Part shown: positions 13,695-63,147 of the stretch, one piece after another
How positions within the stretch are numbered: position 1 is the stretch's first letter
Layout of the letters: each line of letters begins with the position of its first letter
From: Gammaproteobacteria bacterium
GTDB lineage: Bacteria; Pseudomonadota; Gammaproteobacteria; Poriferisulfidales; Poriferisulfidaceae
Direction of reading: 5' to 3'
NCBI GenBank assembly: GCA_028819565.1
Contig: JAPPLD010000029.1
Coordinates: forward strand, 34,998 to 98,997
Length of the DNA stretch: 64,000 nt
Translations under genes and position numbers: made by a program
The notes under the pieces: model-generated
Database searches by the model: none
What the model was told of the DNA's origin: nothing
What the model saw: only the letters and a program-made list of their open reading frames with translations

Positions 13695-13925
13695 CCAATG
13701 TTCCTACTGATCGTCTCTTCATCCCAAGGATGTATTCCGATCCGTGCACCAAAAACTCTCGTGGGAATCAATCTTCAAAGTTATTGATTTACAAATACTT
13801 AATGTGGCCTTGCAGGAACCGCGACGCTTTTTGATTCGTAAGCTGTTGAATCTGCACCAAAGTGTGTGGCTGACCCCTCTCCGTGGTTATAATCTTTGCC
13901 ACACTCGCCCACCCCACCATTTCCA

Positions 13926-15578
13926 ATGCCGAACATAGAATTCGAAGGCAAATGGAATGTCTATGCAGCGCATCTCGTGACGCCATTCCGTCCCTTGATT
14001 CCAGATACGAAGAAATCCATACCGCAGGGCAAAGCGCAAGCCGATAAGCCCTCGACCGAGGGAAACCTGATTATCCAGGGTGATAACCTCCACGCCTTAC
14101 GTGCCTTGTTGCCGCGCTACGCCGGGCGCATCCACTGTGTCTACATCGACCCGCCTTACAACACAGGAAATGAAGGGTGGTGCTACAACGACAACCTGAA
14201 CTCACCTCTGATGAAACGCTGGCTGAAAGAAAACGGCGCTGTGGACCTTGAAGATGAGGAACGCCACGACAAGTGGTTGTGCATGATGTGGCCGCGCCTG
14301 CAACTGCTGCGGGAATTGCTGGCGGAAGATGGAGTTATTTTTATCACGGTCGACGACAACGAACAGCACCGCCTTCGGATGGTAATGGATGAGATTTTTG
14401 GCGAGGATAATTTTTTAGCATGCATCTCTTGGGAAAAGAGGTACACGCGAAACAATAACGCAAAGATGTTCACTTCGGTTGTGGACAAACTGGTTGTTTA
14501 CCGAAAAAGCGAACTGCTAGATTTTCTCCGCGAACCACGCAACACAAAAGCAGATGAAATTTACGACAACCCAGACAATGACCCCCGCGGCCCTTGGACA
14601 AGTGTTTCTTACGTCAATCCCGCGACCAGAGAACAAAGGCCAAACCTGGTCTACACCATCATCAATCCATGCACAAAAAAAGAGGTGCGTCATCCTACAA
14701 ACGCTTGGAAATTTGAGCCTAGTGAACACCAAAAACATGTGCTGGAGAATCGGCTCTGGTGGGGGAAAACAGGAAAGAACAAATTCCCACGACTGAAAAA
14801 ATTTCTATCCGAAGTTTCAGATGGGCTTGTTCCAGTAGACCTGTGGAAGCACGAGGATTCTGGAACAACCGATGAAGGGAGCCTAGAGCTTGAAAGGATT
14901 TTGGGCCGAGCTAAGTTTGACAACCCCAAGCCTACACGTTTGATTAAGAGGATCATCCGGCTATGCCCCCACGACAATCCTATCGTGCTTGACTCCTTTG
15001 CAGGATCTGGAACCACCGCCCAAGCCGTATTGGAACTCAACAAGGAAGACGAAGGGCTCCGGAAATTTATTCTCGTGGAATGCGAAGATTACGCAAATAA
15101 GATTACGGCTGAACGTATCCGCAGAGTCATCAAGGGGATCAAAAACACCAAAGACGGAAATCTCCAACAGGGCTTGGGCGGGGGGTTCACCTATTGCACC
15201 CTTGGCGAGGCTTTGGATATCGAGAGCATGCTCTCCGGTGAAAACCTCCCGGACTACGAAACCATTGCCCGTTGCATTGCACACAATTACACGGGCCTCG
15301 CTTTGGACAAGGTCAAAAAAGGCAAGGACTGGCTGTTCGCCGAGACCGACCGCCATTGCCTGCACCTCATCTACAAGCCAGATCTCAAGTTCTTGGAAAA
15401 CGCCACGGAGGCCGCGCTCACGTTTGAATTGTCCGAACGCATCGGCAAAGCTGCGGTAAGAAAAAACAAGGAGGCGCTGGTCTTCGCGTCCCACAAATTC
15501 ATGTCGCAAAAAGATCTGCGTTACCACAAGGTGACTTTCTGCCAGATCCCCTACTCGGTCTTTGGCACCGCTGGATGA
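13926..15578 (+). CDS. mod: type III-like DNA methyltransferase (Mod; N6_N4_Mtase family, beta-class motif order)
   Basis: From ORF 13896..15578 (TTG). I chose the ATG at 13926 (MPNIEFEG). Motif IV is CVYIDPPYNTG and motif I, further downstream, is VLDSFAGSGTTAQAV. The gene is followed 18 nt later by the helicase-nuclease gene. Confidence 0.8.
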   Translation: MPNIEFEGKWNVYAAHLVTPFRPLIPDTKKSIPQGKAQADKPSTEGNLIIQGDNLHALRALLPRYAGRIHCVYIDPPYNTGNEGWCYNDNLNSPLMKRWLKENGAVDLEDEERHDKWLCMMWPRLQLLRELLAEDGVIFITVDDNEQHRLRMVMDEIFGEDNFLACISWEKRYTRNNNAKMFTSVVDKLVVYRKSELLDFLREPRNTKADEIYDNPDNDPRGPWTSVSYVNPATREQRPNLVYTIINPCTKKEVRHPTNAWKFEPSEHQKHVLENRLWWGKTGKNKFPRLKKFLSEVSDGLVPVDLWKHEDSGTTDEGSLELERILGRAKFDNPKPTRLIKRIIRLCPHDNPIVLDSFAGSGTTAQAVLELNKEDEGLRKFILVECEDYANKITAERIRRVIKGIKNTKDGNLQQGLGGGFTYCTLGEALDIESMLSGENLPDYETIARCIAHNYTGLALDKVKKGKDWLFAETDRHCLHLIYKPDLKFLENATEAALTFELSERIGKAAVRKNKEALVFASHKFMSQKDLRYHKVTFCQIPYSVFGTAG

Positions 15579-15596
15579 CCATCCGCAGGCCCCGGC

Positions 15597-18158
15597 ATGC
15601 AACTCAAGGAATATCAACAAAGCGCCCTAGATGCCTTCGACCGCTATCTCGAGGCCTTGGAAGAAGGCAAAAGAAAATGCAGCCAGATGGCTGAAGCGGG
15701 AGAAACCGACCCTGAATATTTGGATTTCGCACGAAGGGCATGGAATGAACTGAAAAAGCGAGGTCATCTTCCACGCATCGTCGGTCGAAGTGGGGCGCTT
15801 GAAATCCCGGAATATGTCGCACGCTCTGACGAAAGAGGTCAACCCATCCCGCATGTGTGCCTGAAGGTACCAACCGGGGGCGGCAAAACCCTGCTCGCAG
15901 CCTCAGCACTTGAACGCTTGCGCCCGCGATCCGGCATCGTACTGTGGATTGTTCCCTCCAAAGCGATCTTCCAACAAACCTGGGTGTCTCTCGCCACCCG
16001 CCTCCACCCCTATCGTCAGGCCCTTGAACGAGGCAGTGCCGGACGCATCAAACTGTTTCGTAAAGGCGACCCCATTTCTCGCCTGGATGTGGAAAACCAT
16101 CTTTGCTTGATACCCGTCATGCTTCAGGCAGCAGGCAGAAAAGAGACCGGAGACTTTCTCAAGATTTTCCGCGACTCCGGGAAGTATCCAGACTTCTTTC
16201 CCGCGGCTGACGACCTTTCGGAAAACCAGAAAATGCAAGCCGAATTCCCAGACTTGCACACACACGATCTCGGCGATGCCGCACTTGCCGGCACCATCAA
16301 ACGAAGTTTATTCAATGTCCTGAAAGTCACGCGCCCGATTATTGTTCTGGACGAGGCGCACAACGCCTATTCCGAAACGCGCCGGCGGCGTCTGTGCGAA
16401 CTCAACCCCCGCATCATGATCGAATTGTCCGCCACGCCAAAAACTGGCGTCAGCAACATTCTGGTGAACACACCCGGTGAGGCGATGAAGCGGGAGAACA
16501 TGATCAAACTGCCGATTAATATCCACAGCCTGGAAAACTCTGACTGGAAGCACACGTTGAGCAAGGCCGTGGAAAAACTGGCCGACCTACAGCATCGGGC
16601 CGACGACCTCGTGCAAAAAACTGGGAAATACATCCGCCCCATCATGCTGATTCGCGTCGAACGGGTTGGCCGGGAGCAGCGCGACGGGGAACATATCCAT
16701 GCCGAAGACGTTCGGGAAGAACTGATGAAACTCGGTATTCCCGACAGCAACGTTCGACTCAAGAGCGCCTATCGAGACGAAATCGCCCATGAAAACCTTT
16801 TGTCTCCCTACTCCTCGGTCCGTTACATCATCACCAAGGAGGCCCTGCGGGAAGGTTGGGATTGTTCATTCGCATACGTCCTGACTCTGCTGGATACCAC
16901 CAAAACCGATCGCGCCATCACCCAGATGGCTGGACGCATCCTGCGTCAACCCTATGCAGAACCGACTGGTGAGACTGCACTGGACGAATGCTATATCTAC
17001 TGCTTTGACACATCCGTCGGGCAGGCCGCCGAACGGGTCAAGGCAGGGCTGGAAGATGAGGGAATGGGCGATTTGGGGGAATACGTACAGGGAGACGGGG
17101 AAGAGGCTCCCCGACAATTAACTTTCGAAAGAAAATCCGATTGGCGGGACACCCGAATCTTCCTACCCCAAGTGCTGCACCGCACATCTGCCCAAAAAAC
17201 CCGAGCCCTAGATTATGAGCGAGACGTACTGGCTTATCTAGATTGGGCCAAGTTGGCAGACACGGACCTAGATACGGAAGCCTTGGTCCGACGAAAAAGC
17301 GGAGAGATTGTCATCCGCGTGGACCCGTTCGAGGAATCAGGGCTGCCAAGCCATGACAAACTGGACACTGACCCGGAACTCGACATCAACTATTTCGTGC
17401 GGCGAATCAGCGATGCCCTCCCTGTGCCATGGCTCGCAGCAAGCCTTGCAAAGGCGGCCATCCGGAAACTCAGGAAGGAAGGCATGACAGACAAACTGTT
17501 GCATGCTTGCCGCGCAGACTTGGCAGAAAGGATGCGCCAGCAATGCGCCGCCCGCGCAGAGCATGAGGCTCATAGCATTTTCTGTGACAAAATCAGGAAT
17601 GGAGACATCCGGTTTGAACTCGTCGCAGGCAACAACTTTGAACTCCCGATGTCGATGGACAAAATCGTAGAGGTTACCCCCAAAACATTGCAAGGAAATT
17701 ATGGGGCGACCATACAGAAATCCCTCTTCGATCCACAAGGAATTTTTGAAAAAGAATTCAACGGCCTAGAGAAAGATTTCGCCCTGCACATGGATGGGCA
17801 TGCAGCCGTGGCATGGTGGCACCGATTGGCTGTAAAAAGCAACGGCTATGCCCTGCAAGGCTGGAAGCAGGGGAAAATGTACCCCGATTTCGTCGTCTGC
17901 GTCTCCTCGGGACACGGCAAAACCCCAAAACGCCAAATTCTGGTCCTGGAAACCAAGGGATTGCACCTGTCTGGAAATCCTGATACCCAATATAAGGAGC
18001 ACTTACTTGAGAAACTGGAAGAACTGGCCCCAAAAGCAGAGGAATGCGGGGATATTGAACTGCGCGGGAAGAGACAGAAACACAGGATGAAACTCCGGAT
18101 TCTCATGGAGAACACCTGGGAGAGAGATTTTGAAAAAATAGTGCAGAATCCGTCATGA
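15597..18158 (+). CDS. res: type III-like restriction enzyme Res subunit (SF2 DEAH helicase + C-terminal PD-ExK nuclease)
   Basis: 853 aa. Motif I is KVPTGGGKT, motif II is IIVLDEAHNAY and motif III is LSATP. The C-terminal MYPDFVV ...(x14)... LVLETKG fits a PD-(D/E)xK nuclease signature. Confidence 0.8.
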   Translation: MQLKEYQQSALDAFDRYLEALEEGKRKCSQMAEAGETDPEYLDFARRAWNELKKRGHLPRIVGRSGALEIPEYVARSDERGQPIPHVCLKVPTGGGKTLLAASALERLRPRSGIVLWIVPSKAIFQQTWVSLATRLHPYRQALERGSAGRIKLFRKGDPISRLDVENHLCLIPVMLQAAGRKETGDFLKIFRDSGKYPDFFPAADDLSENQKMQAEFPDLHTHDLGDAALAGTIKRSLFNVLKVTRPIIVLDEAHNAYSETRRRRLCELNPRIMIELSATPKTGVSNILVNTPGEAMKRENMIKLPINIHSLENSDWKHTLSKAVEKLADLQHRADDLVQKTGKYIRPIMLIRVERVGREQRDGEHIHAEDVREELMKLGIPDSNVRLKSAYRDEIAHENLLSPYSSVRYIITKEALREGWDCSFAYVLTLLDTTKTDRAITQMAGRILRQPYAEPTGETALDECYIYCFDTSVGQAAERVKAGLEDEGMGDLGEYVQGDGEEAPRQLTFERKSDWRDTRIFLPQVLHRTSAQKTRALDYERDVLAYLDWAKLADTDLDTEALVRRKSGEIVIRVDPFEESGLPSHDKLDTDPELDINYFVRRISDALPVPWLAASLAKAAIRKLRKEGMTDKLLHACRADLAERMRQQCAARAEHEAHSIFCDKIRNGDIRFELVAGNNFELPMSMDKIVEVTPKTLQGNYGATIQKSLFDPQGIFEKEFNGLEKDFALHMDGHAAVAWWHRLAVKSNGYALQGWKQGKMYPDFVVCVSSGHGKTPKRQILVLETKGLHLSGNPDTQYKEHLLEKLEELAPKAEECGDIELRGKRQKHRMKLRILMENTWERDFEKIVQNPS

Positions 18159-54681: not shown

Positions 54682-55461
54682 ATGTGCACGCATACGCGGC
54701 TGCTTTTTCTGGGCCTGCTGGCATCGCTCGGCGGCGCTGGCCAAGCGGCAGATTCGCCGTTCTCCTCGGGCTCGGACTCCGGGCTGCAGATCGCCGTACG
54801 ACTGATTACCGACAAAACCCCGGAGGAGCCGTCATCGGACGGCAGCATCGAGGAAGAGGACGCAGAATCTCCGGAACAGGCGGAAGAAGGTGCGCCCTCC
54901 GCACAAACTCCCGGCGTCCCGGCCTCACAGGAGGATCGCGCCGAAGATCAAGACCTTTTGGAGGGTTCAGAAGAAGGATCATCGCCTGCAGGGCAGGAAA
55001 CAGCCGGTGAAACCGAAGATTCCGGGATCGAAGACGGACTCGAAAGAGAACCGGAACTTGCGGAACAGGCGAGTATCGAAGAAGGGCAAGAGAGGGATCT
55101 TTCCCGAATCGAGGCCGTGCTGAACCGCGTTGACCAGATTCTGCTGGACGCGGGAATCCGGGCCCGCAAAGAACGGGAAGGAAGGGGCGACGGCGACGGG
55201 ACAACAGATGAAGACTTGTCGGATTGGGAGACACAGGGCGAAGGCGAAGGGGAAGCTGCGGAGGAAGAGGCCGAACGCGGCGGTGTCGCCGAGGGCCAGG
55301 TCCCCGGCGATGTCCCGACCGGCAAGACGCGTCCGACTCACGGCTACGAGAAAGACGACGACATCGTGACCCGGCAGGTCTGTGAACTGGCGGAACGAGA
55401 GGAAGATCCCGAGATCCGCAAACAGCTGGAGCAAAAATGCAAAAGCCTACGAGACAGTTAG
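54682..55461 (+). CDS. secreted hyper-acidic low-complexity protein (operon gene 1)
   Basis: 259 aa with the signal peptide MCTHTRLLFLGLLASLGGAGQA. By hand count about 69 of 259 residues are D/E, in runs such as IEEEDAESPEQAEEG and GEGEGEAAEEEAERG. Confidence 0.6.
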   Translation: MCTHTRLLFLGLLASLGGAGQAADSPFSSGSDSGLQIAVRLITDKTPEEPSSDGSIEEEDAESPEQAEEGAPSAQTPGVPASQEDRAEDQDLLEGSEEGSSPAGQETAGETEDSGIEDGLEREPELAEQASIEEGQERDLSRIEAVLNRVDQILLDAGIRARKEREGRGDGDGTTDEDLSDWETQGEGEGEAAEEEAERGGVAEGQVPGDVPTGKTRPTHGYEKDDDIVTRQVCELAEREEDPEIRKQLEQKCKSLRDS

Positions 55462-56621
55462 CCCTGCTTACTTTGCTGCTGGCCTTCGCCAGCGGATGCC
55501 AGACCAGCATGTCCGGCATCTACGGGGGCCTGTTCGAAAAGTCGCCGGAAGAGCCGGCTGTTGAGCCGGTACCGGAAGAATGGTATCTGGATGCCGGCAT
55601 TGTCCGGTTCAAGGGGGAAGTCGACAAGAAAGAAGTCGCCGAGGGAGACGTGTTCCCCCAGGTGCGGAAAGCCGAAACCCTGTACTTTCCCCAGCAGTTG
55701 CGCCAAGCGATGCTGCGCGGGGGCGGCTGGCGGCATGTGTGGGTGGTGCCGGAACGCGCCGTTCCGGATCTGCGCATCGAGGGCATGATCCTGCAATCGA
55801 ATGGCTCCGAACTGGACCTGAAAATCCTTGCCACCGACTCGACCGGCGAACAGTGGCTCGATCGCGTCTACAGCCATGAATTCAGCGAAACCGATTACGC
55901 CGGCGAGGATCGGGCCCGACCGATGGAGGCCCTATTCGACCAGATCGCAAAAGATCTCCTAGTCGAACGCGACCGCAGGGGAGTAGCGGCCATGAAGGAG
56001 ATCCGCGCCGTGGCGGAATTGCGGTTCGCGGAAGAGTTCGCGCCGCAGGCGTTCGAACGTTATGTCAAGGCAGACAAGGGCCGCACACGCCTGATTTCGT
56101 TGCCTGCCGAAGAAGACACGTTGTACCAACTGGTACTGCAAATCAAGGAGCGCGATGACCTCTTCGTCGAGACTCTGCAGCAATACTCGGAGGGTTTTTC
56201 AGAAAAGATCGATGCCTCGTACCGAGACTGGGCACGACAGAGTTTCTACGAACGCCGTGCGCATGACGAGGGGGTTGCCGCCAGCGTAACGCAGGGGCTT
56301 CTGAGCGCCTTGGCCATCATTGGCGGAGTCGTGGTGGCGGCCGACTCGGGGTCCTCCCCGGAAGCCCGCCAACTCGGCCAGGTACTGGTGGGGGCTGGCG
56401 CCTACGGTGCCTATGATGCCTACCAGGACTATGAAGCAACGGAAATCCACGAGGCCGCGCTCAAGGAGCTCGGACAGTCGCTCGACCTGGAGGTGGAGCC
56501 TCAGGTCGTGCAAGTAGAGAACCAGACACGCACGCTTACCGGGTCGGTCGAAGACCAGTACCAGCAGTGGCACGAAATCCTGAACGAGATCTACCTGTCG
56601 GAACGTGGCGCCCTGAACTGA
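55437..56621 (+). CDS. lipoprotein of unknown function (operon gene 2)
   Basis: 394 aa. The lipobox is LLAFASGC after MQKPTRQLALLTLL. It overlaps gene 1 by 25 nt. Confidence 0.6.
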   Translation: MQKPTRQLALLTLLLAFASGCQTSMSGIYGGLFEKSPEEPAVEPVPEEWYLDAGIVRFKGEVDKKEVAEGDVFPQVRKAETLYFPQQLRQAMLRGGGWRHVWVVPERAVPDLRIEGMILQSNGSELDLKILATDSTGEQWLDRVYSHEFSETDYAGEDRARPMEALFDQIAKDLLVERDRRGVAAMKEIRAVAELRFAEEFAPQAFERYVKADKGRTRLISLPAEEDTLYQLVLQIKERDDLFVETLQQYSEGFSEKIDASYRDWARQSFYERRAHDEGVAASVTQGLLSALAIIGGVVVAADSGSSPEARQLGQVLVGAGAYGAYDAYQDYEATEIHEAALKELGQSLDLEVEPQVVQVENQTRTLTGSVEDQYQQWHEILNEIYLSERGALN

Positions 56622-57346
56622 TTCCGGCCGCACTGGTGCTGGCGGCGGGACTGGCCGCAGGAACCGCCGCGGCCGAGAGCATCCAGGATCAGGCGCTTCG
56701 CGCCATGCTTGATTCGGACTGGACCCGGGCGGTCGAGTTGTGGGCAAAGGTGGACGGACAACGAGCCCGGGAATACCTTCAGCAGGCCCGGGCGGAGCTC
56801 CAGTTTCAGCGAACCCGGTCCCTACTGGACGAGGCCCGTGCAGCCCGACAGAAAGAAGACTGGGCCGCAGCCGATGCCGCCTATCTCAAGGCACTGGCCA
56901 TTTCCCCCCATTTGAAATCGGCACACCAAGGTCGAGAGCAGATCGCCCTGTATATCGAGGCATACCGGCGGCTGGACGCATTGAAGCTGCCGGAAGGTCT
57001 CTACGACAAGGTCATCCAGGCCCGGGCGAAAGAGTGGCTTGCATTTGTCCGAGAAAAACAGCTCGATGACCGGAAGATCGATAAGGCCCGTAAGGAACTT
57101 GTCGAGACATTGAAGCTGGCGCAAACCCCAGTCTCCCTGATCCTGACTTCGGACAACCGGTCCGAGGTTGAAATTTACGGGGTCGGGAAACTCGGACGGC
57201 TCGAACGCCAGACCCTGAAGTTGGTTCCGGGCGATTACATCGTCGTCGCCAACCGACCCGGGTACAGAGATGCGCGCGCGACGTTGAGAGCGCGCCCCGG
57301 TAAGGCTCTTACCCTGGACATTCGGTGCACGGAGTCGATCCGGTGA
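56567..57346 (+). CDS. periplasmic helical-repeat (TPR-like) + PEGA-domain protein (operon gene 3)
   Basis: 259 aa with a GTG start. The signal-like segment is LIPAALVLAAGLAAGTAAAES. The C-terminus VSLILTSDNRSEVEIYGVG...LKLVPGDYIVVANRPGYRD fits a PEGA domain. The start is uncertain because it implies a 55-nt overlap. Confidence 0.5.
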   Translation: MARNPERDLPVGTWRPELIPAALVLAAGLAAGTAAAESIQDQALRAMLDSDWTRAVELWAKVDGQRAREYLQQARAELQFQRTRSLLDEARAARQKEDWAAADAAYLKALAISPHLKSAHQGREQIALYIEAYRRLDALKLPEGLYDKVIQARAKEWLAFVREKQLDDRKIDKARKELVETLKLAQTPVSLILTSDNRSEVEIYGVGKLGRLERQTLKLVPGDYIVVANRPGYRDARATLRARPGKALTLDIRCTESIR

Positions 57347-59160
57347 TTCTTGAACACGAGTCGATCCGGGCTAAGCCATATCGGCCGCCCAAGCGGGAAA
57401 GGCGCCGCAAACGACCTTCAGCGCCCCGATTTCGTGGGGCGGGACTGGCGATTCTGCTCCTGGCATTGATGACGGCAGGCGCCTGGTACGCCATGGAGCA
57501 GGCACAACTCATCAGCTTCGAGACCGACCCTGCAACCGCTGCGGTGCACCTCGAGAGTCCCCACATGATGGTGAACGGGCAAGCCTTGCTCTGGCACGGA
57601 CAACATGTCGCGAATGTGGAAGCAGAAGGCCACTATCCGCGACAAATCGAATTCCAGGCGGGTGGAGATGCGTCGCGCACCGTGCAGGTCACTCTGAACC
57701 CCTTGCCGGGCAAACTCCGGGTCTCCACGACTCCTGAGACCGAGGGGGAAGTCCAGGTCGACGGCGAACGTGCCGGGAAGATCGGAGAAATACTGGAGGA
57801 TCTCTCTCCGGGTCAGCATGTCGTGCAGGTCAGCGTGGAGGGCTTCGAAATGCACCGGCAAACGGTAGAAATCGAGGGATACGGCCAACTGACCGAGATT
57901 GAGATTTCGCTCCAGAAGGTCACAGAACCTGCCTTGCTGACGATTTCCAGTACGCCCAAAGCTGCAGACATCCTGATTGATGGCACCTGGCGAGGACGGA
58001 CCCCGAAGCGGGTCACCTTGACTCCAGACACCCAAGTGGAAGTTGCCCTGTTACTTCCTGGACACACCCCGAACCGGCAGACCCTGAAGTTGAGGTCTGG
58101 CCGTCAAAGCCACACAGTGGCCCTAACGCCGCGCCTTGGCACCCTTGAACTTTGGCCGACGCCAGCCAACGCGACGGTTCGCGTCGATGGGCAGGTGGAA
58201 CTTCGGCGCCAGTTGCAGTTGACGCAGCGAGCCCATACCGTGGAGGTTTCCGCACCGGGCTATGTAACGAAGAAATACACCGTGGTGCCCCATCCAGACA
58301 CTCCGAAGCAGCTTTTCGCCGTCTTGCAGTCGCAGGCGAAGGTTGAACACTCCCGGCGCCAGAAGCATGAACGGAATCTCGGGCTGGTCTTCGTCGAGTT
58401 CCAGCCCCGCGGCTCGTTCGAACTCGCGACCACGCGCCGCCGAATCCCGGTGCGCCTGACTCGACCGTTCGCGATCATGGACAAGGAAGTCACCAACGCC
58501 CTGTACCGGCGCTACCGGGCCGAACATGACTCCGGAGAAGTGTTCGGCAAACGCTTGGACCGGCCAAGCCAGCCGGTAGTGCGGGTCAGTTGGGCAGATG
58601 CCGCACTGTTTGCGAACTGGATGAGCGAGCAGGCAGGGGTTGCGCCGTTCTACCGGGTACGCGACGGGCAAATCGTGGGATTCGACGCGCAGGCGACTGG
58701 ATACCGGATGCCGAGTGAAGCCGAATGGGTCTGGTTGACCCGTTCCGGAAAACGGTATGCTTGGGGCGACTTCATGCCGCCCCCGGACCGGTTCGGCAAT
58801 CTGGCGGACGCTTCCGCCTCCGACATCGTGCAGCCGACACTGGAGGAATACAACGACGGATATGCCGTCAGCGCCGACGTCGGAAGCTTCCCGCCTTCGG
58901 GCCAGGGGTTGTATGATTTGCCGGGCAACGTGGCGGAATGGATGCACGACGTGTTTCTCGACAAACTGCGGGTCTCGGCCCGCCCAGAGACGGAACGAGT
59001 CAATCCGCTGGGCGAGGCCAGCGGCCGGTACTACGTCATCCGGGGATTTGGCTGGCGCGACGGCGGGCGCAAGGAGTTGAGCCTGAGCAACCGCCGCTAC
59101 GACCGCGATCCCAAGGATGATGTGGGGTTCCGGCTGGCTTATTACCTGGACAAGCCATGA
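57343..59160 (+). CDS. membrane-anchored 4xPEGA + FGE-sulfatase (SUMF1-like) domain protein lacking catalytic Cys pair (operon gene 4)
   Basis: The basic N-terminus KRERRRKRPSAPRFRG is followed by the TM segment AGLAILLLALMTAGAWY and four PEGA-like repeats (e.g. LLTISSTPKAADILIDGTWRGRTP, LELWPTPANATVRVDG). FGE-sulfatase hallmarks are PVVRVSWADAALFANWMS, YRMPSEAEWVW, GNVAEWMHD, VIRGFGW and DVGFRLA. A GTGA junction lies at 57343 (alternative GTG at 57325). Confidence 0.75.
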   Translation: MILEHESIRAKPYRPPKRERRRKRPSAPRFRGAGLAILLLALMTAGAWYAMEQAQLISFETDPATAAVHLESPHMMVNGQALLWHGQHVANVEAEGHYPRQIEFQAGGDASRTVQVTLNPLPGKLRVSTTPETEGEVQVDGERAGKIGEILEDLSPGQHVVQVSVEGFEMHRQTVEIEGYGQLTEIEISLQKVTEPALLTISSTPKAADILIDGTWRGRTPKRVTLTPDTQVEVALLLPGHTPNRQTLKLRSGRQSHTVALTPRLGTLELWPTPANATVRVDGQVELRRQLQLTQRAHTVEVSAPGYVTKKYTVVPHPDTPKQLFAVLQSQAKVEHSRRQKHERNLGLVFVEFQPRGSFELATTRRRIPVRLTRPFAIMDKEVTNALYRRYRAEHDSGEVFGKRLDRPSQPVVRVSWADAALFANWMSEQAGVAPFYRVRDGQIVGFDAQATGYRMPSEAEWVWLTRSGKRYAWGDFMPPPDRFGNLADASASDIVQPTLEEYNDGYAVSADVGSFPPSGQGLYDLPGNVAEWMHDVFLDKLRVSARPETERVNPLGEASGRYYVIRGFGWRDGGRKELSLSNRRYDRDPKDDVGFRLAYYLDKP

Positions 59161-59375
59161 AACGGCTTTGGTGGGTGCCCCTGTGCGCGGCGACGGCCCT
59201 GGCGTGGGCCGAAGAGCCTCCCGCACCACAAGTGGAAGACGAGGATCGCGAAGTTCTCGAAGTCCTGACCGAAGAGGATCTCAAGCGGGAAACCCCACAG
59301 ATCACGCTCAAGCAATTGACCCCAAAAGAAACCATTTCCCTTGATCAAGCCGTGGATATGCCTAGTGACATTTAA
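59157..59375 (+). CDS. small secreted acidic protein (operon gene 5)
   Basis: 72 aa with the signal peptide MKRLWWVPLCAATALAWA. An ATGA junction overlaps gene 4. Confidence 0.5.
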   Translation: MKRLWWVPLCAATALAWAEEPPAPQVEDEDREVLEVLTEEDLKRETPQITLKQLTPKETISLDQAVDMPSDI

Positions 59376-60246
59376 ATTGAACAACCTGACCGAGCGCTGG
59401 CGCGAACACGAAGTGTTCTGGCAATTGCTGGCGTTAGCGGTGTCGTTCGTGCTGGTGCACGCGACATATGAACTGGTGGTGCGCCCAGTCGCCTACGAGG
59501 AGTTGCAACGCCAAGCCGTCGCCGAGGAACAGGCTGAAATCGCATCGCCGACGCTCGGCGCACGGATCGCCGTGGTCGTCAAGGACTACGAGCAGGAAGC
59601 CTGTTTTGTCGCCTTGTTCTGGGCACTGGCCATCATGTGGATGAAGCTAATGAAGCTGCGCTTCGCGCGAAGGCTGCTGAGCCAGCGTGGCCGACAAGAC
59701 GAGGAGAGCTTCCTGGAAACCCGGGAAACCGATTTGGTCCTGCCTCAAGCACACGACCGGGCACGTTTCACCGACGTGCGAGAGTACGTGCGAATGCAGG
59801 GCTATGGCAGTACCGTGCTCTACCGGGCTGCCGACGCCTGTCTGGACCGCTTCTTCACGACGCATTCCGTATCGGACGCCACTGCGGCCATGAAGGCCAG
59901 TTGCGAGATGGAGTCGGACCGGCAGGATACCGAACTGGCACTGGTGCGCTACCTGACCTGGGCCATTCCGTCACTTGGATTCATCGGCACGGTGCGCGGG
60001 ATCGGTGCAGCCTTGGGGCAGGCCGAAGAAGCCACGCGCGGCAACATCGGACCGGTGACGGAAAGCCTTGGTGTGGCATTCAATTCAACGTTTGTCGCCC
60101 TGCTGATCAGCCTGTTCATCATGCTGCTGCTGCACAAGCTGCAGGAAGCCCAGGAGTCGCTGGTGCTAGATGCCCAAGAGCATTGCCAGCATCACCTGCT
60201 GCGTTACCTGCGGGAGCGGACGCGGACGGATGAGCCTTCTTCTTAG
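59365..60246 (+). CDS. MotA/TolQ/ExbB-family proton-channel protein (operon gene 6)
   Basis: AIPSLGFIGTVRGIGAAL ... GPVTESLGVAFNSTFVALLISLFIMLL parallels the ExbB/TolQ signature (GLFGTVWGI ... VAPGIAEALIATAIGL). It has two N-terminal TM segments plus a cytoplasmic loop of about 100 aa. There is no in-frame ATG near the start, so it begins at GTG 59365 or TTG 59377. Confidence 0.8.
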   Translation: MTFKLNNLTERWREHEVFWQLLALAVSFVLVHATYELVVRPVAYEELQRQAVAEEQAEIASPTLGARIAVVVKDYEQEACFVALFWALAIMWMKLMKLRFARRLLSQRGRQDEESFLETRETDLVLPQAHDRARFTDVREYVRMQGYGSTVLYRAADACLDRFFTTHSVSDATAAMKASCEMESDRQDTELALVRYLTWAIPSLGFIGTVRGIGAALGQAEEATRGNIGPVTESLGVAFNSTFVALLISLFIMLLLHKLQEAQESLVLDAQEHCQHHLLRYLRERTRTDEPSS

Positions 60247-61141
60247 GATCGACAGCTACGTGCTGGCACAGCCCGACGGCACCGACTGGCGGGTCGAATG
60301 GTGCCTTGCCCATCGGGATTCAAAAGACGGTTGGCGATTCGGTAAAGATGCCGGTGAACGGCTGCAGCCCCGACGCACCGACAACGAAAACAACGAATAC
60401 CTAGAAGCACCGGAGACGGGAGAAGGCCAAGGCACGTCGAATATCGACCTTGCGTATCTGCAGTTGCGGGAATTCCTGCCGGAAGGGGAAGACCCGATTG
60501 ATCTTTCGGTGAGTGGAGGAATCGATCGGTCACGGCTTGAATGCCTGCTGGGCGTTCTGGAAGCCTTGGGCTACACACCCCGAAGCGTATTCCCGACCGC
60601 ACTGCTGGCAGCCCGGGACCTTGAGCCCGGACGCTACGGCATCGTTGAACTCGGACGCAGCCGCAGCTGGATCAGCACTGTTGATGTCCAGCCGGGTCGT
60701 GCGCGGCTGGAATCGGTCCAGGATTACGGGGATTTCGGCTTCTATCACCTCTTCACTCAATGGATGGAGAACGCGGCGGAAGCCTTCGCCGCCCAGCACC
60801 GTTTCGACATACATCGCAACCTCGCGACAAACCGTGGACAACTGTTCGAACAAATGTGCCAAGGCTTCGCCGGGAAATCCGGACAGATCCGGCTCAATCT
60901 GGATTCCCGGCCCGTAACACTGGATGAAAAGGTCTTTCAAGCCCGCTGGCCGAAGTCTTCTCCCGATACGGAGGGGTTGGATCTCCTGCTGCTGCCTCCC
61001 CTAACGCGTGAGTTGCCGCTACCGGAACAGGGGTTGGGTCTCCCTCTTTGTGTCAACCCCGCGCCCCAAGCCGCCTTCAACCTGGCCACCTCCGTGCCGG
61101 AAGACGGACAAGCCCACCGTTGCGTGGCTCTCTCCTGCTGA
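60230..61141 (+). CDS. hypothetical cytoplasmic protein (operon gene 7)
   Basis: 303 aa from the internal ATG of ORF 60170..61141. It has no signal peptide or TM. It overlaps gene 6 by 17 nt and abuts gene 8 (TGAATG). Confidence 0.45.
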   Translation: MSLLLRIDSYVLAQPDGTDWRVEWCLAHRDSKDGWRFGKDAGERLQPRRTDNENNEYLEAPETGEGQGTSNIDLAYLQLREFLPEGEDPIDLSVSGGIDRSRLECLLGVLEALGYTPRSVFPTALLAARDLEPGRYGIVELGRSRSWISTVDVQPGRARLESVQDYGDFGFYHLFTQWMENAAEAFAAQHRFDIHRNLATNRGQLFEQMCQGFAGKSGQIRLNLDSRPVTLDEKVFQARWPKSSPDTEGLDLLLLPPLTRELPLPEQGLGLPLCVNPAPQAAFNLATSVPEDGQAHRCVALSC

Positions 61142-62185
61142 ATGTCCAGACGCCGCCGCAGCCGTTTCTTGAACCCGTTCGGCCTGGCTTTCCTGGATGT
61201 CATGTCCTGCGGGTTGGGGGCTGCCGTCCTGCTTTTTCTGATCATTGACCACAACCTGACTGAACTGGCGCAGGCATCGGAGAGCGGCGAGGGAGATGTG
61301 CAACTGCTGGAGCAGTCGATCCAGGAACAGGAAGAACTGATCACCGAGCACCGCAGGCAGATGCGTCAACTGCAGCGCGAGCTGGAAAGCTTGGCGCAAC
61401 AGCGCGTAGCCGCCATCACCACCCAAGCCGAACTGCGCGCTCGTCAACCGAAGGCGTCCGACACCGCCCGACTTGAACGGGAACTGCGCGAACGCAAGAA
61501 GAAACTCCAAGAAGCGGAGAAAAGCAGGCAACTGAGGGCGAAAGAGGGAGAAGGACAACGCCAGTACGTGGCTGGTTTCCGAGTCGAAGGCCATCGCATT
61601 CTGATCCTGCTGGATCGCTCGGCCAGCATGCAGGACGAACATATTGCCGCGATCATCCGGAACAAGTTTCTCCCGGTGAAGTACCAGATCGAGAGCTACA
61701 AGTGGCGCTGGGCGCGTTCCATCTTTGAGTGGGTCCTCTCACACCTGCCTCAAGAGGCGCAATACCAAGTCTGGGGCTTCAACACGGCGGCAGCGCCAGC
61801 GCTGTCGAAGAGTGGATGGCTGCCGGCAAAAGACGAGAAACGGATGGAAGAGGTGATTTCGGCAGTGCAGGGCTGGGTTCCTGCGGGAGGGACCCGCCTC
61901 GATACGACCCTCAAGAAGATCGCCCAGATCAAGCCAAGGCCGGATGCAGTCTATCTGATTACGGACGGCCTGCCGACGCAGGGAAAATCCTGGTTCAAGA
62001 AAAGCCGGGTCAGCCCTTCCCAGCGCATGGAGTTTTTCCGAGAAGCAACGGGAGGCATCGCGGGCCCGCCTTTCAATATCGTCCTGCTTCCGCTTGAGGG
62101 CGACCCGGCAGCGGCCGGGGCCTACTGGGAATTTGCGATGAGGACGGACGGACAATTCCTGGCCCCGGCGGAGGACTGGCCATGA
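61142..62185 (+). CDS. ExbD/TolR-like TM helix + coiled coil + vWA (MIDAS) domain protein, paralog A (operon gene 8)
   Basis: The N-terminus MSRRRRSRFLNPFGLAFLDVMSCGLGAAVLLFLII compares with ExbD INVTPFIDVMLVLLIIF. It is followed by a heptad-rich segment of about 110 aa (QLLEQSIQEQEELITEHRRQMRQLQRELESLAQQ...). The vWA domain has MIDAS LLDRSASM, GGTRLD and LITDGLP. Confidence 0.75.
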   Translation: MSRRRRSRFLNPFGLAFLDVMSCGLGAAVLLFLIIDHNLTELAQASESGEGDVQLLEQSIQEQEELITEHRRQMRQLQRELESLAQQRVAAITTQAELRARQPKASDTARLERELRERKKKLQEAEKSRQLRAKEGEGQRQYVAGFRVEGHRILILLDRSASMQDEHIAAIIRNKFLPVKYQIESYKWRWARSIFEWVLSHLPQEAQYQVWGFNTAAAPALSKSGWLPAKDEKRMEEVISAVQGWVPAGGTRLDTTLKKIAQIKPRPDAVYLITDGLPTQGKSWFKKSRVSPSQRMEFFREATGGIAGPPFNIVLLPLEGDPAAAGAYWEFAMRTDGQFLAPAEDWP

Positions 62186-63147
62186 GGCGCGTCCGCCGGC
62201 AAGCCGACAACCGTTTGTCGTTTCTCGACGTAGTCAGTTGCGGGTTCGGGGCCATGGTGTTGCTAATTCTGATTACTAAAAACACTGTGGGTGAGCCGGT
62301 CGAAGATCTCCGAGCCCAAATCGAAGCGCTGCAGGAACAACTCGCACGCGTCATCCAGGTCCAGGCAAGTCTGGCGGCCGAACAATTTTCGGCACAAGCC
62401 CGGGTACACGCTCAGCAGGAGAAACTGCAGGACGACCGAAAGGCCGTAGTGGAAGCACGACAGGCGAACGCCGGTGCCCAAGCGCAAGCGCTGATCGAGG
62501 CGGATCTGAAGAATGCGCTTCAACGCCTCAATGAAGAAATGAGGCGGCTGAACCTGACTGCATCCAAGCCGGATGTGATCGGCGGCATTCCGGCCGACAG
62601 CGAGTACATCATCTTTATCGTCGACACGTCCGGCAGCATGAAACGGTTTGCCTGGAGGGCCGCGAGGCAGCAGCTGGTGACCCTACTGGACGCCTACCCG
62701 AAAGTGCGTGGACTCCAGGTGATGAACGACATGGGCACGTATATGTTCAGCGGCTACCGGGGGCGCTGGATTCCAGATACGCCCGCAAGGCGGAAAGTTC
62801 TCCTGCAGCGTTTTGATTCCTGGCATTCGTACAGCAATTCAAGCCCCGTCGAGGGCATCCTGGAAGCCATCAAGCGGTTCCGCATGAAATCCGACAAGAT
62901 CAGCCTGTACATCTTCGGCGACGAATACACCGGCGAGTCGATCCAGCGGGTCATCGACACGGTGGAGGATCTCAACTACCGGGATGGAAAGCGGCAGGTC
63001 CGCATTCATGCGGTCGGGTTCTTCACCCGGGCGCAGATCGAAAAGATTGATCCAAAATACGCCGACACCACTAGTCGATTCGCAGCCCTGATGAGGGAGT
63101 TGACTCGGCAGAACGGCGGGACTTTTTTGGGGGTTACGGTGGATTGA
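62182..63147 (+). CDS. ExbD/TolR-like TM helix + coiled coil + vWA (MIDAS) domain protein, paralog B (operon gene 9)
   Basis: The N-terminus is MRRVRRQADNRLSFLDVVSCGFGAMVLLILI. The coiled coil contains LRAQIEALQEQLARVIQVQASLAAEQ... The vWA domain has FIVDTSGSM and YIFGDE. An ATGA junction overlaps gene 8. Confidence 0.75.
   Translation: MRRVRRQADNRLSFLDVVSCGFGAMVLLILITKNTVGEPVEDLRAQIEALQEQLARVIQVQASLAAEQFSAQARVHAQQEKLQDDRKAVVEARQANAGAQAQALIEADLKNALQRLNEEMRRLNLTASKPDVIGGIPADSEYIIFIVDTSGSMKRFAWRAARQQLVTLLDAYPKVRGLQVMNDMGTYMFSGYRGRWIPDTPARRKVLLQRFDSWHSYSNSSPVEGILEAIKRFRMKSDKISLYIFGDEYTGESIQRVIDTVEDLNYRDGKRQVRIHAVGFFTRAQIEKIDPKYADTTSRFAALMRELTRQNGGTFLGVTVD

Follow-up and report, generated by a model that had tools for sequence, protein, structure and literature searches.

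A TolQ-like Protein and Two Membrane-Tethered vWA Proteins Predicted to Form a 5:2 Motor within a Conserved Gammaproteobacterial Envelope Cluster

A 64,000-nucleotide stretch of DNA from a gammaproteobacterium of the family Poriferisulfidaceae (contig JAPPLD010000029.1 of assembly GCA_028819565.1, positions 34,998 to 98,997; hereafter the window) carries an operon of nine genes, numbered here g1 to g9 in order of transcription. The products of g6, g8, and g9 probably make up a motor powered by the proton motive force (PMF) and belonging to the MotAB/ExbBD/TolQR class, in which five ring subunits enclose two axle subunits (5:2). g6 is a TolQ-like protein, while g8 and g9 are paired proteins that each join one membrane helix with a conserved aspartate to a helical stalk and a vWA (von Willebrand factor A) domain. 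A heterodimer of the two would take the place of the ExbD, TolR, or MotB axle.

An initial annotation, made from the letters of the window, had presented this arrangement as a novel architecture. That claim does not stand. The same architecture is set out in PMC12204202 (Mol Biol Evol, June 2025, section 8, Fig. 4c,d), whose proposal is the hypothesis of the annotation feature for feature; it was already known as a computational result. The interpretation itself has good support from indirect evidence. New relative to that work is the finding that the genes lie in a conserved envelope cluster of 9-13 genes occurring in at least 559 species. What remains of interest is the function of the system, how widely the family is spread, and the accessory genes conserved with it, which together open the system to experiment. 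The three genes of the proposed motor are the following.

59341-60246, plus strand: g6, 301 residues, MotA/TolQ/ExbB family; codon of T217 at 59989-59991 and of T250 at 60088-60090
61142-62185, plus strand: g8, first subunit of the vWA pair, 347 residues; codon of Asp19 at 61196-61198; predicted metal-site residues D158/S160/S162 at 61613-61627
62182-63147, plus strand: g9, second subunit of the vWA pair, 321 residues; codon of Asp16 at 62227-62229; D148/S150/S152 at 62623-62637

Two Paralogous Proteins with an Invariant Membrane Aspartate

The open reading frames (ORFs) of g8 and g9 are present as annotated, overlap by 4 nucleotides (ATGA), and encode proteins with the described basic N-termini, MSRRRRSRF in g8 and MRRVRRQ in g9. 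The two are paralogs, as had been claimed, and align collinearly with 23% identity over 271 residues (E 5e-10). Each possesses a sole hydrophobic helix, within which lies the motif L-[AS]-F-L-D-V-[MV]-S-C-G-x-G-A containing Asp19 of g8 and Asp16 of g9. The transmembrane (TM) helix of g8 spans approximately residues 13-35. Because the N-termini are poly-arginine, both proteins are predicted to have their N-termini in the cytoplasm (N-in). They thereby present the axle-type combination of a single-pass N-in helix and an acidic residue conserved close to the cytoplasmic end of that helix. No other single-pass protein encoded in the operon has a charged residue in its helix.

Conservation and linkage were followed in 80 fetched loci of about 21 kb each, a sample in which many gene absences fall at contig ends. 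The aspartate of the FLD motif is present in 79 of 79 g8 orthologs and in 79 of 79 g9 orthologs (158/158, from 79 genomes). This exceeds what chance would preserve, because the orthologs share only about 35-40% identity overall. Both g8 and g9 occur in 79 of the 80 loci, that is, in every locus where they could be called, and they are adjacent wherever coordinates were inspected. A gene of the MotA/ExbB family (PF01618) is found in 78 of the 80, nearly always just upstream, and the linkage predicted by the annotation is thus borne out.

A conventional axle gene was sought in the same DNA. Searches with phmmer using E. coli ExbD, TolR, and MotB retrieved no homolog among the ORFs of the window or of the 80 loci, the ExbD probe having been checked on the PDB, where it retrieves both ExbD and TolR, and the TolR and MotB probes being unvalidated sequences. 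Full-length g8 and g9 have no match to the ExbD/TolR family (PF02472) in Pfam, nor to any OmpA-like or MotB model in Pfam and NCBIfam. Membership of g8 and g9 in the ExbD/TolR family was accordingly rejected, every sequence test of it being negative. As the pair falls outside that family by all these tests, the claim made here is limited to functional analogy, possibly with a very remote homology behind it. The analogy is drawn from the topology, the invariant aspartate, the partner gene, and the fact that no canonical axle gene was found at the loci examined.

The TolQ-like Ring Candidate

The match of g6 to PF01618 reaches 45.9 bits, above the gathering score of 22.9 (E 5.7e-12), and its Kineobactrum ortholog scores 56.3 bits. 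Two threonines, T217 in the segment G-F-I-G-T-V-R-G-I and T250 in F-N-S-T, are invariant among 26 orthologs. Profile alignment with E. coli TolQ (PDB 8odt_A) matches them to the pore-lining residues T145 and T178. g6 is presumed to be the pentameric part of the motor.

Outside this core the protein has features of its own. Ahead of the TolQ-like core of three TM helices come an additional N-terminal TM helix, in which His40 and Pro49 are invariant, and an invariant acidic patch, D-x-E-x-E; the NCBIfam model for TolQ covers residues 89-266 only.

Stalks and vWA Heads

A stalk of about 90 residues separates the TM helix from the vWA domain, and the AlphaFold2 model of g8, built with 89 homologs, shows helices at residues 51-100 and 108-139. 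The annotation had read this region as a coiled coil. The long helices are secure; the coiled coil itself is plausible, with a heptad signal that is clear in g9 (a/d score z 3.3 against composition shuffles, reached by 2/500) and weak in g8.

The vWA assignment, by contrast with the claim of novelty, was upheld, through a profile match for g9 and through the predicted fold for g8. g9 exceeds the cutoff of Pfam VWA (PF00092) with 28.2 versus 23.8 bits, and g8 falls marginally below that of VWA_2 with 26.5 versus 27 bits. In the g8 model, the vWA domain at residues 150-347 has a predicted local distance difference test score (pLDDT) mostly of 90 or more, with lower values in a loop near 281-290. 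A Foldseek search with this model returned 197 PDB matches at E<=1e-3, the best reaching E 1.3e-07 with probability 1.00. Nearly all of the best 50 of the 197 are vWA folds, including ITIH1, 4fx5, BatB, CLCA1, TEM8, and alpha2delta.

Both proteins also carry the DxSxS motif of a metal-ion-dependent adhesion site (MIDAS) that the annotation had pointed out, D158-x-S160-x-S162 in g8 and D148-x-S150-x-S152 in g9. Within g8, D158, S160, S162, and D275 show no variation, and conservation of T251 is at least 85%. In g9, D148, S150, S152, and D247 are conserved, and a conserved N-S-S-P (219-222) stands in place of the usual GGT threonine loop. These motifs support a predicted metal site in each head. 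All three points on which the original proposal could have foundered, namely the TM aspartate, the vWA profile, and the linkage to MotA/ExbB genes, were thus examined, and none of the adverse outcomes occurred.

Comparison with Described Systems

The closest described relatives are the "TPH-vWA" proteins of PMC12204202, where TPH stands for a trans-pore helix. They are encoded, mostly as heterologous pairs, beside tolQ-like genes and in the absence of tolR/exbD; their helix resembles that of TolR and ExbD and has a conserved Asp, and they lack the SHLS motif (S-x3-H-x6-L-x3-S). AlphaFold 3 models of 5:2 complexes of Idiomarina proteins place both vWA helices inside the TolQ-like pentamer, with the Asp by a ring of Thr. 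The family was reported mainly from Proteobacteria and Verrucomicrobia and without a function or phenotype. The same paper describes paired tolR-like genes in the Planctomycetes-Verrucomicrobia-Chlamydiae group, as well as another family of vWA proteins that does have the SHLS motif, co-occurs with tolR-like genes, and is proposed to bind the periphery of the pentamer as TonB and TolA do.

The system of the window shares with the TPH-vWA clusters vWA domains tethered by a TM helix, heterologous pairs, linkage to a tolQ-like gene, the conserved Asp, the Thr ring, and occurrence in Proteobacteria. Paired genes for such proteins were found at 79 loci, a TolQ-like gene at 78 of 80, and no ExbD, TolR, or MotB homolog by the searches given above. 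The family is very likely the same one, because it is abundant in other Alteromonadales; the match is one of described features, not of a seed sequence. The two accounts differ in that PMC12204202 does not discuss the wider cluster, with its PEGA and formylglycine-generating enzyme (FGE)-sulfatase domains, lipoproteins, Hsp70-like and forkhead-associated (FHA) protein, and small secreted protein. A literature search on that wider cluster (PEGA, FGE-sulfatase, MotA/TolQ/ExbB, vWA) gave nothing relevant and no later paper extending PMC12204202, and a 2025 survey of MotAB in mBio does not mention vWA.

Compared with the ExbB-ExbD, TolQ-TolR, and MotA-MotB motors, the likenesses are found in the membrane. 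g6 belongs to PF01618 and has both TolQ pore threonines; g8 and g9 each cross the membrane once, N-in, behind a basic N-terminus, and have their Asp about five residues into the helix; and the local motif F-L-D-V-M of the window parallels F-I-D-V-M in ExbD. In contrast, g8 and g9 have neither the ExbD/TolR periplasmic domain nor an OmpA-like peptidoglycan-binding domain. The residues after the Asp form a small-residue face, S-C-G-F-G-A, where the known helices have L-V-L-L-I-I-F. The proposed axle consists of two distinct subunits, and the ring protein has the extra N-terminal helix.

A heteromeric axle has a precedent in Myxococcus xanthus, in which the TolQ-like protein AglR works with two different TolR-like partners, AglQ and AglS. 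The Agl motor and Glt proteins belong to a large complex that spans the envelope and also contains TPR proteins, TonB-C-like proteins, lipoproteins, and a vWA adhesin (CglB; PMC9946355). On the present side, the first gene of the Kineobactrum cluster has a weak C-terminal match to TonB_C and AgmX-PglI (E ~1e-3). Homology to Glt proteins was not shown, however, and in Myxococcus it is an outer-membrane lipoprotein, rather than the axle, that bears the vWA domain.

The type IX secretion motor GldLM/PorLM with GldK/PorK offers a parallel in gene order. As in gldK-gldL-gldM, an FGE-sulfatase-fold protein is followed by a motor ring gene and then by bitopic proteins with long periplasmic extensions. 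The systems differ in that g6 is of the MotA_ExbB family rather than a GldL, homologs of GldM and GldN are absent, and the hosts are Gammaproteobacteria. Identification of g4 itself as GldK/PorK was rejected: against the GldK model TIGR03525 it scores 67.6 bits (E 1.3e-18), far under the cutoff of 350, and its N-terminus is a basic tail with a TM anchor and no lipobox, so that it is not a lipoprotein. A role in anti-phage defense of the Zorya kind was likewise set aside. With the PADLOC models, the one relevant match is that of g6 to ZorA (E 0.03), and the few matches of g8 and g9 (E 0.004-0.07) are coiled-coil noise to unrelated models.

A Model of the Proposed Motor

For the 5:2 assembly, its stoichiometry, heterodimerization, proton coupling, and ligand, a scheme can be proposed by analogy with the known motors. 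Five copies of g6 would encircle one TM helix each from g8 and g9, with Asp19 and Asp16 facing the ring of T217 and T250 and undergoing alternate protonation and deprotonation. Proton transfer would then rotate the g6 pentamer relative to the g8/g9 dimer. The stalks, up to about 12 nm long if extended, would carry two non-identical vWA heads into the periplasm, where the MIDAS of each head may bind an acidic residue of a partner. Were that ligand fixed, the heads would anchor the axle as the OmpA-like domain anchors MotB on peptidoglycan; alternatively, force could be passed to an outer-membrane component, as by TonB and TolA. Likely partners from the same cluster would be the lipoprotein g2, the PEGA/FGE-sulfatase protein g4, and the acidic C-terminal peptide of g5. 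The Hsp70-like/FHA protein g7 may act on the cytoplasmic face as a regulator or an output.

Several observations weigh against this model. The annotation had stated that the helix mirrors that of ExbD and TolR; the short motif likeness holds, and homology is not statistically supported. With hhalign, the Asp of g8/g9-type helices falls in register with D25 of ExbD and D23 of TolR over 8-9 columns only, and neither alignment is significant (LAFLDVMS with TPFIDVML of ExbD, P 0.011, probability 3.9%; FGLAFLDVM with NIVPLLDVL of TolR, P 0.13, probability 0.4%). A HMMER profile of 36 columns from 24 diverse helices retrieved no ExbD, TolR, or MotB chain from the PDB, and the helix segments gave no match to ExbD (PF02472) in Pfam at E<=10. 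The heptad score of g8 is weak (z 1.6, 32/500), and the TM region of its AlphaFold2 monomer model has a pLDDT below 50. In gene order, g7 usually lies between the motor gene and the vWA pair, and at two loci (L060 and L073) the TolQ-like gene is downstream of g9 rather than upstream (~12.1-12.9 kb), an arrangement in which the linkage is kept despite the changed order. Kinship to the modeled proteins, moreover, is a matter of description: Idiomarina, of which I. loihiensis supplied the seed of PMC12204202, is not among the best 120 of at least 7,625 matches to a Colwellia query. The vWA-axle family is so far known from genes and computational models alone, and the AlphaFold 3 complex of PMC12204202 covers only Idiomarina proteins.

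Alternative Explanations

Three other explanations of the same genes were weighed against the 5:2 motor. In the first, which is unlikely, g8 and g9 are vWA proteins like BatA/BatB, tethered to the membrane as scaffolds or for adhesion, that stand beside the TolQ-like protein or are independent of it. The aspartate would then serve oligomerization or another purpose, and the TolQ-like protein would have its axle encoded elsewhere or be no motor. BatA and BatB are likewise TM-anchored bacterial vWA proteins in paralogous pairs. BatB and an aerotolerance-related vWA protein of B. fragilis are among the structural matches of g8 (3ibs, 4jdu), and the likeness of the helix to ExbD and TolR is not statistically significant. 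However, the cluster contains neither the MoxR ATPase gene nor the DUF58 gene found in the Bat operon of Bacteroides aerotolerance, an operon not known to include a MotA/TolQ gene. The linkage to a TolQ-like gene is strict here, with no axle gene found within about 10 kb in 80 genomes, and it is otherwise hard to see why both paralogs should keep a buried acidic residue without exception.

In the second, which is quite improbable, g7, g8, and g9 form an alignment subcomplex like PilM/PilN/PilO or GspL/GspM, with g7 docking on the N-terminal tails of a coiled-coil dimer, and serve as a scaffold for an envelope machine, not as a motor axle. This arrangement is itself compatible with a 5:2 motor. 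The order g7-g8-g9 resembles pilM-pilN-pilO, relatives of g7 have the acetate and sugar kinase/Hsc70/actin (ASKHA) fold in its Hsp70-like form, the paralogs g8 and g9 each run from a TM helix through a helical stalk to a globular domain, and g9 has a weak match to GspM (E 0.056). Yet the cluster includes no pilin, secretin, or secretion ATPase. A Colwellia locus without g7 (L068) still has the TolQ-like gene directly abutting the vWA pair, and PilN/PilO-type proteins are not known to have a conserved TM Asp.

In the third, which is very improbable, the vWA proteins sit at the periphery of the pentamer like TonB and TolA and the pore is empty or filled by another protein; a peripherally binding SHLS family of vWA proteins does exist according to PMC12204202, but it accompanies tolR-like genes, none of which was found here, and g8 and g9 have neither its S-x3-H-x6-L-x3-S motif nor a His in the helix (the helices of g3 and g4 also lack a TonB/TolA-like SHLS/His motif).

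The Surrounding Envelope Cluster

The proposed motor genes belong to a single plus-strand operon in the last 8.5 kb of the window, with its genes tightly packed or overlapping. Domains were assigned with Pfam and NCBIfam profiles. The remaining members are the following.

54682-55461, plus strand: g1, operon head, 259 residues, secreted and highly acidic
55437-56621, plus strand: g2, lipoprotein of 394 residues with invariant lipobox Cys21
56567-57346, plus strand: g3, 259 residues, secreted or anchored, with weak tetratricopeptide repeat (TPR) and PEGA-like signals
57325-59160, plus strand: g4, 611 residues, periplasmic with an N-terminal TM anchor, PEGA repeats, and a C-terminal FGE-sulfatase domain
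59157-59375, plus strand: g5, small secreted acidic protein of 72 residues with a C-terminal motif at 59319-59375
60230-61141, plus strand: g7, cytoplasmic, no Pfam match; the ORF opens at 60170 and the likely start is 60230 (MSLLLRID)

Upstream of the operon, on the other strand, are UvrD-like, UbiB, and SCP2/UbiJ-like genes; downstream, on the reverse strand, is an outer-membrane beta-barrel gene. In its proteins, the window shares 97% identity with a contig from the sponge-associated gammaproteobacterium Candidatus Porisulfidus sp. Among relatives, the complete ones have chromosomes of about 1.6 Mb.

The conserved cluster has 9-13 genes, those of the motor included, and the form in the window is shorter than that of most Gammaproteobacteria. 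In Kineobactrum sediminis (L049, 1-15000), the order is a TPR protein (the one with the weak TonB_C/AgmX-PglI match), a Pro/Ser-rich lipoprotein, g2, g3 (508 residues), g4 (four PEGA and FGE-sulfatase), g5, g6, g7 (436 residues), g8, g9, two lipoproteins, and a BepA-like M48 protease. The Porisulfidus cluster is trimmed. It lacks the TPR gene and the downstream lipoproteins, its g3 has 259 residues versus about 508, and its g7 has 303-323 versus about 440. This trimmed cluster is nevertheless retained in symbiont genomes of about 1.6 Mb. Among the 80 loci, g4 is present in 73, g3 in 63, and g2 in 57, and an ORF of about 440 residues takes the position of g7 in almost all.

The accessory proteins are conserved to different degrees. 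g1 is extremely rich in Glu and Asp, is confined to the Porisulfidus clade (7/80 loci), and sits where other genomes carry the Pro/Ser-rich lipoprotein; its membership in the system is uncertain because it is conserved only in that clade. The lipoprotein g2 has no relative in Pfam, NCBIfam, or the PDB. g3 aligns to proteins of about 500 residues in other genomes over its C-terminal ~120 residues only. Full-length relatives of g7 (e.g., L049 8694-10004, P0241) contain an Hsp70-like nucleotide-binding domain (NBD) module, with an AlphaFold2 pLDDT of 85.7 and Foldseek matches to the NBDs of DnaK and Hsc70 at E ~1e-14, followed by a C-terminal FHA-like beta sandwich. The g7 family profile matches the FHA domains of EssC, KIF13B, and Ki-67 at E ~1e-3, and one UniRef member is named an FHA domain protein. 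The g7 of the window is shortened and lacks the FHA part of the ~440-residue family.

g5, an orphan by first appearance, is a conserved protein with a variable acidic body and a conserved final 19 residues that end exactly at the stop codon. The C-terminal consensus F-x-P-[ST]-E-x-I-S-E-D-L-x-V-x-F-P-x-D-I-stop occurs in 53 of 75 loci, counted with a pattern that set six positions and left free F(-19), I(-13), S(-12), V(-7), and F(-5), all of them strongly conserved; in the window it reads LTPKETISLDQAVDMPSDI. The tail is near-invariant across orders, and its alternating hydrophobic pattern suggests a beta-strand. This C-terminal peptide is a candidate ligand of the vWA MIDAS sites.

Elsewhere in the window, a stretch of low GC content (0.52-0.54 versus ~0.60) includes, at 13896-18158, two genes that make up a type III restriction-modification pair, one for an N6_N4 DNA methylase (13896-15578) and one for a ResIII helicase-type subunit (15597-18158). 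A trypsin-like peptidase gene is upstream of this pair and a GlmU-like gene downstream.

Distribution and Significance

A search with g8 gave 596 proteins at E<=1e-3, and one with the Colwellia ortholog gave at least 7,625. Databases name the g8-type matches only "VWA domain-containing protein" or "hypothetical". The branch is common: when each species was represented by a single genome, at least 559 of the genomes scanned contained relatives, nearly all of these genomes being gammaproteobacterial. The hosts include Pseudohongiellaceae, Halieaceae, Cellvibrionaceae, Microbulbifer, Kineobactrum, Marinibactrum, Colwellia, Thalassomonas, and Pseudoalteromonas, and the best 120 of the matches to the Colwellia query come from Thalassomonas, Thalassotalea, Pseudoalteromonas, Psychrobium, Microbulbifer, and others. 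As the family occurs in cultured genera (Pseudoalteromonas, Microbulbifer, Thalassomonas, Thalassotalea, and Kineobactrum), its function is directly testable.

Flagella, TonB-dependent uptake, maintenance of the envelope by Tol-Pal, gliding, type IX secretion, and Zorya defense all draw their power from 5:2 motors driven by ions. An axle that ends in metal-dependent adhesion domains, as predicted here, would widen what such motors couple to, and the conserved neighbors, chiefly the g5-type protein, are concrete candidates for what the vWA heads hold. A further and more tentative possibility, itself doubtful at present, is that the TolQ-like/vWA-axle motor is the engine of an unrecognized multi-component machine spanning the envelope of Gammaproteobacteria. 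Its parts would be the TPR/TonB-C-like protein, the lipoproteins, the PEGA/FGE-sulfatase protein, which would span the periplasm and recalls GldK, a cytoplasmic Hsp70-like/FHA regulator, the BepA-like protease, and a g5-type MIDAS ligand. If true, this machine would add a new functional class to the PMF-powered systems, one of the rank of Tol-Pal, Ton, type IX secretion, or Agl-Glt.

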